IMG/VR virus record: IMGVR_UViG_3300045988_155081
Span: 1 to 41,926 of that record
Strand: one strand, 5' to 3'
DNA from: a virus
DNA length: 41,926 bases
This document shows, piece by piece, positions 32,831 through 32,943 of the stretch (position 1 is the stretch's first letter; every line of letters begins with the position of its first letter). A program made the translations under genes and the position numbers. The notes beneath the pieces are model-generated. The model was not told the origin of the DNA, made no database searches, and saw only the letters and a program-made list of their open reading frames with translations.

Positions 32831-32858
32831 AAAAAACGGGTTGCTCTCACACAACCCG
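32831..32858 (-). terminator. Intrinsic terminator
   Basis: Minus strand reads cgggttg-tgtgagag-caacccg followed by tttttt. Confidence 0.7.
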
Positions 32859-32907
32859 CCTTTCCCGAATTAAAATACAACAGGAGGACAAGACACAACC
32901 AATGTCT
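32831..32907 (-). ncRNA. Candidate ~77-nt sRNA with a CCUCC-type anti-SD stretch
   Basis: Promoter at 32914..32943, then a 5' hairpin (agaca-ttggttg-tgtct), then single-stranded tgTCCTCCTgttg, then the terminator. Confidence 0.45.
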
Positions 32908-32913
32908 ATCTTT

Positions 32914-32943
32914 ATTATATATCTGAAAATACTAAACTGTCAA
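32914..32943 (-). promoter_or_regulatory. Promoter of the candidate sRNA / 54-aa gene unit
   Basis: Minus strand reads TTGACA-gtttagtattttcagata-TATAAT (18-nt spacer). Confidence 0.55.

Follow-up and report, generated by a model that had tools for sequence, protein, structure and literature searches.

Phage RNAs of about 70-80 nucleotides (nt) that end at an intrinsic terminator, namely lambda OOP, P22 Sar, P1/P7 C4 and P4 CI, are base-pairing regulators, some of which act at ribosome-binding sites (RBSs). RNAs of this kind have been reviewed (PMC12197685). In the Shiga-toxin phages, a strong, always-active sigma-70 promoter whose transcripts are terminated at once gives rise to StxS, a 74-nt RNA that is a trans-acting regulator (PMC7547250), and the short PR'-tR' transcript of phage lambda, the 194-nt 6S RNA, binds Hfq and has partners detected by RNA interaction by ligation and sequencing (RIL-seq) (bioRxiv 10.1101/2024.10.31.621285). 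In the Firmicutes, the C-rich small RNAs (sRNAs) RsaE and RoxS use a C-rich motif to pair with G-rich Shine-Dalgarno (SD) regions (PMC5419742, PMC6158497). Here we compare with these systems a short unit, consisting of a promoter (P1) followed closely by a terminator (T1), on the minus strand of the virus record IMGVR_UViG_3300045988_155081 of IMG/VR. The whole 41,926-nt record was analysed and is referred to below as the window.

The anatomy of P1-T1 makes it very probable that a small RNA is produced just upstream of the structural genes of this uncultured human-gut phage. P1 matches the sigma-70 consensus at every hexamer position (12/12), and there are just three such perfect promoters in the whole 41.9-kb genome when 0.04 are expected from 300 composition-preserving block shuffles; the remaining two stand back to back, ahead of obvious early genes. 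T1, some 77 nt beyond the predicted start, is among the very few clean canonical terminators on the minus strand and has a core energy of -12.2 kcal/mol. There is no credible open reading frame (ORF) within the unit on either strand, and the unit is single-copy, with no paralogous copy found within the genome. The original prediction, which was made from the letters of the sequence, had described a promoter, a clean intrinsic terminator and the layout of a ~77-nt sRNA at this position; all three were borne out, in the form of a self-contained promoter-to-terminator unit that is predicted to give a non-coding RNA. A 79-nt version of this RNA folds with an energy of -27.3 kcal/mol (z = -3.9), a value that none of 200 shuffled sequences equalled. 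Beyond its 5' hairpin the RNA reads UUGU-CCUCCU-GUUGUAUUUUAAUUCGGGAAAGG and then enters the terminator (Table 1).

Our favoured reading, which we hold tentatively, is that the unit is an autonomous small-RNA gene whose real and abundant ~77-nt product acts by base pairing. Host RNA polymerase carrying sigma-A/sigma-70 would fire from P1 and most of the transcripts would end at T1, an arrangement that should yield an abundant RNA of ~76-80 nt. Its invariant pyrimidine core, set between G/U flanks able to form wobble pairs (UUGU-CCUCCU-GUUGU), would pair with purine-rich ribosome-binding regions in the manner of RsaE/RoxS-type sRNAs. A minority of transcripts reading through T1 would feed the variable cargo gene that lies downstream and thus the unit would double as a gate, as do StxS and lambda 6S RNA. 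A bolder proposal, and in our judgement a long shot, is that the RNA mimics the 3' end of 16S rRNA: produced in large amounts already in the first minutes after infection, and with G/U flanks that could wobble-pair in most contexts, it would mask strong host SD sites and selected phage ones and shift translation to SD-poor messages, for example that of terL, with exposure of its core being switched by trimming of the 3' tail.

Table 1. Position of P1-T1, its parts, the adjoining gene and candidate pairing partners in the window.
Feature	Position	Strand	Remarks
AAAAGTGG motif	32944..32951	minus	Adjoins the -35 hexamer of P1
P1 promoter	32914..32943	minus	TTGACA 32943-32938, 18-nt gap, TATAAT 32919-32914; both hexamers unchanged in all variants
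Predicted transcription start, A32907 or G32906	32906..32907	minus	Placed by the -10 position, 7-8 nt past the hexamer
5' hairpin AGACA-UUGGUUG-UGUCU	32891..32907	minus	Pair probabilities near 1 in the window sequence
Pyrimidine core with G/U flanks, UUGU-CCUCCU-GUUGU, candidate pairing seed	32877..32891	minus	CCUCCU is 32887-32882
Candidate pairing segment in the transcribed part of the unit			CCUCCUGUUGU
Predicted weak middle helix UCCUG (32885-32881):CGGGA (32867-32863)	32863..32885	minus	Folding prediction; 13-nt A/U-rich loop inside
Intrinsic terminator T1	32831..32858	minus	Stem CGGGUUG(U)/(G)CAACCCG 32858-32837, 7-8 bp, G+C-rich; loop of 6-8 nt; U6 32836-32831
Spacer from T1 to the next gene	32772..32830	minus	Weak promoter-like sequence at most; 98% identity in L059 and L061
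Gene of 54 amino acids (aa), variable cargo slot	32607..32771	minus	From P1, reached only by T1 read-through
Candidate partner: SD of the 83-aa gene	32339-32329		11 bp
Candidate partner: both in-frame start sites (6342 and 6306) of one gene			12 bp, and a perfect 11 bp (6326-6316)
Candidate partner: SD of the gene starting at 9140

The unit is present in more than 30 loci, every copy being 93-100% identical. These homologues were sought among terL relatives in IMG/VR, metagenomes and genomes, with a DNA pattern scan, and through homologues of the 54-aa protein and the contigs that carry them; the main comparison used 12 sequence variants from nine loci. CCUCCU, like the P1 hexamers, shows no change in any variant. 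Across 14 variants the hexamers and the T1 stem are invariant or compensated while both flanks vary: A32841G in the stem retains a U-G pair, and a 2-nt deletion in locus L059 shortens the T1 loop and affects nothing else. Nucleotide diversity (pi) shows a local dip, to 0.010 across the promoter and 0.031 across the RNA; the adjoining sequence has values of 0.055 on the upstream side and 0.083 on the downstream side. P1-T1 also stays 96-100% identical in three loci in which the gene behind it is altered. The 54-aa gene has fallen to 79% nucleotide identity in L059, a gene for a GNAT acetyltransferase has been added behind T1 in L061, and a 44-nt deletion in L015 takes out the RBS and the start codon of the 54-aa gene. 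Because P1-T1 remains intact where the downstream gene has diverged, gained a neighbour or lost its start, the unit is not tied to one downstream gene.

These data bear on the suggestion that the promoter and the terminator came together by chance or persist as a relic, with no selected function, P1 being perhaps unused by the polymerase of the real host or a leftover from cargo exchange. The narrow distribution of the unit is in keeping with this: it is confined to one tight phage group and is absent from phages with 40-52% terL identity, from loci L014 (52% terL identity), L024 and L025 (in metagenome-assembled genomes (MAGs) of Clostridia, 41% terL identity), L037 and L038, and from all 399 Clostridia genomes that were scored among the 401 scanned. 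Set against this are the excess of perfect promoters over expectation, the early genes that follow the other two, and the constancy of hexamers and stem between variable flanks. We consider a chance or relic origin very unlikely.

Several observations weigh against the small-RNA reading, and the first group concerns conservation. With all relatives being 93-100% identical the range is too narrow for covariation, which made such an analysis impossible; for the middle helix UCCUG:CGGGA the variants offer no covariation for or against. Conservation of the unit in itself proves little because its identity does not exceed that of the remaining backbone, the neighbouring P2 unit and 83-aa gene being 97-99% identical, about the same as P1-T1. 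The 5' hairpin AGACA/UGUCU of the original prediction is indeed predicted to form in the window but it is not conserved: G32894A and C32892U, which occur together in v0, v6 and v9 (three of the 12 variants), disrupt the stem without compensation, and relatives can therefore dispense with the hairpin. A check of both hairpins in relatives found the T1 stem kept and the 5' hairpin lost in that minority.

The second group concerns the accessibility and the partners of the seed. The stretch containing CCUCCU had been described as apparently unpaired; our folds half-sequester it through UCCUG:CGGGA unless a tail of 8-9 nt is kept. With a tail of 3-7 nt (RNAs of 73-78 nt) the UCCUG:CGGGA helix forms and CCUCCU is left fully single-stranded with a probability of 0.000-0.04, whereas with a tail of 8-9 nt the U-tract takes over as the partner of GGGA and the probability climbs to 0.47-0.62. 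Target scans covered the phage genome and 87 phage translation-initiation regions. The duplex energy of the seed was no better than that of shuffled seeds, either against the whole genome or against the initiation regions, where the best region reached p = 0.13, and the target prediction that had been proposed as a check therefore picks out no clear mRNA on the phage side. CCUCCU is not enriched in the genome, CCTCCT being found in 5 copies on both strands when 6.9 are expected. At GG[AG]GG sites, uninterrupted helices built outward from the CCUCC core are in excess: there are 7 of at least 10 bp versus 2.5 for flank-shuffled seeds (p = 0.02), and 5 of at least 11 bp (p = 0.01). This helix test was post hoc, having been devised after the data had been seen, and the excess is partly explained by the promiscuous wobble pairing of the G/U-rich flanks; we regard the count as suggestive of pairing, not as strong. 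The proposal that an exposed anti-SD segment acts in trans on RBSs thus keeps the post-hoc helix count (p about 0.02) on its side and has tail-dependent exposure and null duplex scans on the other.

Among the candidate partners (Table 1), the gene with starts at 6342 and 6306 (6295-6372, minus strand) is the last of the leftward cluster. Its two ATGs are 12 codons apart and each is preceded by ACAAC(G/A)GG(G/A)G, both sites being complementary to the RNA seed. G32878A, in L013, is the sole natural change in the seed and it has no compensation at the 6326-6316 site, the best of the candidates, which is a further point against pairing. The product of this gene resembles BclA/C1q-like collagen-tail proteins and is not a holin. 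Masking in cis of the RBS of the 54-aa gene by the anti-SD segment was also rejected: only 5 bp are possible and they are left unused in a 158-nt fold. The last of the adverse observations comes from elsewhere in the genome, where further promoter-terminator-gene units suggest that the arrangement at P1 is an instance of a general cis design.

Such a design is the essence of an explanation that ranks close behind the small-RNA reading. Here P1-T1 would be a promoter-proximal transcription gate and nothing else, in the style of lambda PR'-tR': P1 would be a strong promoter for the leftward cluster (the cargo gene, then small genes, terL and structural genes), T1 would either hold it off until a phage factor made the polymerase terminator-resistant or simply attenuate it, and the ~77-nt RNA would be a functionless by-product. 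We see this as possible, if on balance rather unlikely. The unit lies on the same strand as the 54-aa gene and directly upstream of it, with no promoter site scoring at least 9/12 in the spacer between them, and it stands at the upstream edge of a 27-kb minus-strand cluster beginning with terL, a position that the original prediction did not weigh. The order promoter, terminator, gene recurs at 3845/3993, 11677/11637 and 40931/40924, in units occupying 3845-3993 (plus strand), 11605-11677 (minus strand) and 40879-40931 (minus strand), and therefore read-through or antitermination must exist in this phage. In the 3845-3993 unit the transcript of a perfect promoter meets a terminator with a 12-bp stem and a U7 tract ~10 nt before the SD of the downstream gene, for which no Pfam family was found. 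The distribution of AAAAGTGG hints at joint control: the motif has 7 copies in the genome versus 2.4 expected, a number reached in none of 100 shuffles, and four of them fall within or adjoin promoters of the minus strand, namely the copies at 11661 (P11677), 31933 (P4, 31945), 32356 (P3, 32378) and 32944 (P1), the others being at 17393, 20819 and 32275. It may be a regulator site, or operator, that these four promoters have in common. A precedent for gating exists in lambda Q and PR'-tR' (PMC9388147; PMC7547250).

Other features of the locus fit a pure gate less well. A scan of ~30 proteins with Pfam and PHROGs, which small N-like proteins would escape, turned up no antiterminator of the Q, N or any other family. 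No boxB-, put- or nut-like hairpin common to the leaders of other promoters was found, and no alternative antiterminator fold that competes with the T1 core is predicted in 79- and 158-nt folds. What the unit has in common with the terL leader is no more than a 9-mer, ACAUUGGUU (about 0.08 expected by chance). The stretch from T1 to terL contains three more strong promoters (32617, 32378 and 31945), and so the late genes do not need P1. That leaves the cargo gene as the sole gene that depends on read-through, and a variable gene that is dispensable, having lost its RBS and start in L015, is a poor reason for a perfect promoter. StxS and lambda 6S RNA, the model cases, were themselves found to have partners.

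The DNA above P1 suggests a different role, in which the act of transcription itself is what matters. Between 33020 and 33900 there is a gene-free region of 0.9 kb that is hypervariable (pi 0.12-0.21), has many indels, is rich in repeats and contains G+C-rich and A+T-rich blocks; it is bracketed by divergent promoters, P1 firing leftward and one at 33853 firing rightward. Together they might keep the region negatively supercoiled, for example for an origin or a packaging site, with T1 shielding the genes downstream. This is conjecture throughout, no origin, iteron set or cos/pac site having been identified, and hypervariability argues against a precise cis site near P1. We think it hardly probable.

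The strand opposite the unit was considered as well. A hydrophobic ORF on the plus strand has its ATG 13 nt past AGGAGG (32882-32887), the exact complement of CCUCCU, which raises the idea that the RNA is a cis-antisense regulator, like a type I antitoxin, of a plus-strand mRNA for this ORF. Matches to RatA (18 bits) and Sib (17 bits) in Rfam point the same way at noise level, far under the gathering thresholds of 49 and 56. The ORF runs from 32902 to 33018 and has 38 codons, not the start at 32903 and the 43 codons that had been given for it. A T-run of 5, 6 or 7 shifts its length, which is 38 codons in the window, 32 in most relatives and at least 53 aa in one group, and outside the part that overlaps P1, and is constrained by it, substitutions are almost all non-synonymous. 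The 13-nt gap between SD and ATG is poor and no plus-strand promoter scoring at least 9/12 was found upstream. We judge the antisense reading exceedingly unlikely, and a type I toxin-antitoxin module with this ORF as the toxin was ruled out on the grounds that the ORF is not conserved and has no promoter of its own. The original prediction had allowed that the plus-strand ORF might be the expressed product; since the ORF is not a gene, that reservation does not apply.

An ORF of 93 aa upstream of P1 (33256-32975), which public gene callers annotate, has its frame broken in at least five variants. T1 was accordingly rejected as the terminator of an upstream gene: because of the broken frame there is no such gene for it to serve and the unit stands alone. 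In Rfam searches at gathering and permissive thresholds no family reached its gathering score at the unit, and this includes the known riboswitch aptamers. The best matches by E-value over 32780-32960 scored 21-22 bits and were of the kind expected from a terminator plus AT-rich noise; matches to L20-leader, GibS, RatA and Sib, at 17-22 bits, were rejected as noise of the same type.

The window is a complete virus record that is circular or terminally redundant, because the same coding sequence (…ENEFITYLDTIWKKIL…) is repeated at its ends, 1-300 and 41612-41926. Its relatives derive from human-gut metagenomes and the nearest genome matches are the Clostridia MAG loci with 41% terL identity; the host is probably a member of the Clostridia. 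No cultured phage is closer than 22-26% terL identity, and a blastn search of the region against GenBank phages gave no match. On the minus strand, terL (29752-31605; phrog_38) is followed by about 25 kb of further genes. Upstream of terL the order is P1-T1, the 54-aa gene, the promoter at 32617, the promoter at 32378 with genes of 83 and 48 aa, and the promoter at 31945 (P4), from which a leader of ~310 nt leads to terL. The 54-aa gene shows runs of synonymous changes and its homologues are 74-94% identical at the protein level. In L061 the cargo slot (1501-2212) holds a 72-aa gene, the GNAT acetyltransferase gene and a 41-aa gene.

A number of other elements were seen in the same genomes. 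The promoter at 32617 (minus strand) reads TTGACA-18-TATTAT and overlaps the stop of the 54-aa gene. It opens a second ORF-free unit (32405-32617, minus strand), ~175 nt followed by a branched terminator-like hairpin that carries a U-run and directly precedes the next promoter, and this unit has no match in Rfam. The start region of terL (31606-31730, minus strand) has no SD; the ATG comes after the hairpin GGGCGAC/GUCGCCC, ACUCCUUUG and U8, and the ~310-nt leader has three copies of ACUCCUUU. The terL gene of L011 (2669-5707) and L009 (1998-5036) is a 1012-aa ORF with an insert of ~395 aa that is lacking from terL in the window, and in this insert Pfam recognises an intein splicing domain (9.7e-20) and a LAGLIDADG endonuclease (2.5e-5). 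Further away, a full-length Pistol ribozyme (RF02679; 60.5 bits versus a gathering threshold of 34.5) lies at 34640-34715 on the plus strand, just past a 217-aa gene in the rightward operon, and a GP20-a RNA motif (RF02991; 54.6 bits versus 47.2) lies at 27750-27839 on the minus strand, between a gene of portal size and the next structural gene.

To our knowledge, regulatory RNAs of phages of gut Firmicutes are almost unknown. If the P1-T1 RNA exists and pairs with RBSs, the C-rich sRNAs of Firmicutes would have a counterpart in a phage, and the StxS principle, the release of a functional sRNA at a terminator gate, would extend to a second phylum; the RNA would also provide a handle on the timing of cargo and structural genes in a widespread group of human-gut phages. 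If the RNA is only a by-product, T1 is an ordinary promoter-proximal terminator.

Of the described systems, OOP, Sar, C4 and CI are matched in that a ~77-nt phage RNA ending at an intrinsic terminator is predicted here. Those RNAs are antisense to the transcript that they control or are processed from it, and they have long, exact complementarity to it; at this locus there is no gene on the opposite strand, and complementarity within the phage reaches 11-12 bp at best. The resemblance to StxS and lambda 6S RNA, both of them by-products of a gate, lies in a strong sigma-70 promoter ahead of a late or structural gene cluster, here a 12/12 promoter upstream of the terL cluster, and in an intrinsic terminator that follows soon enough to give a short RNA. 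There is no similarity to either in sequence or in Rfam, and the gene behind T1 is variable cargo, not a lysis or toxin gene. Unlike lambda PR'-tR', the phage showed no Q-family antiterminator among the proteins scanned, which did not include every ORF, and T1 is not the sole gate, three promoters preceding terL. A possible Q-binding or sigma-dependent pause element, GACATT at about +2 to +7, matches a -10 sequence at 3/6 positions, too little information to count. Dependence on Hfq is doubtful because the likely host is a Firmicute and not an enterobacterium. With RsaE and RoxS the unit shares a short RNA, a Rho-independent terminator and a C-rich motif, although there is a single CCUCCU here versus several UCCC/CCCC motifs there, and CCUCCU is predicted to be half-paired, its probability of being unpaired ranging from 0.00 to 0.62 with the 3' end, where RsaE/RoxS carry the motif in a loop. 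The unit is also phage-encoded and confined to one phage group, and RsaE was not among the matches in the Rfam E-value search of 32780-32960. By sequence, P1-T1 belongs neither to the PR'-tR' transcripts nor to RsaE/RoxS. In layout its nearest counterpart is the short PR'-tR' transcript of the lambdoid phages, and RsaE and RoxS would be the nearest in the mode of action that we propose.
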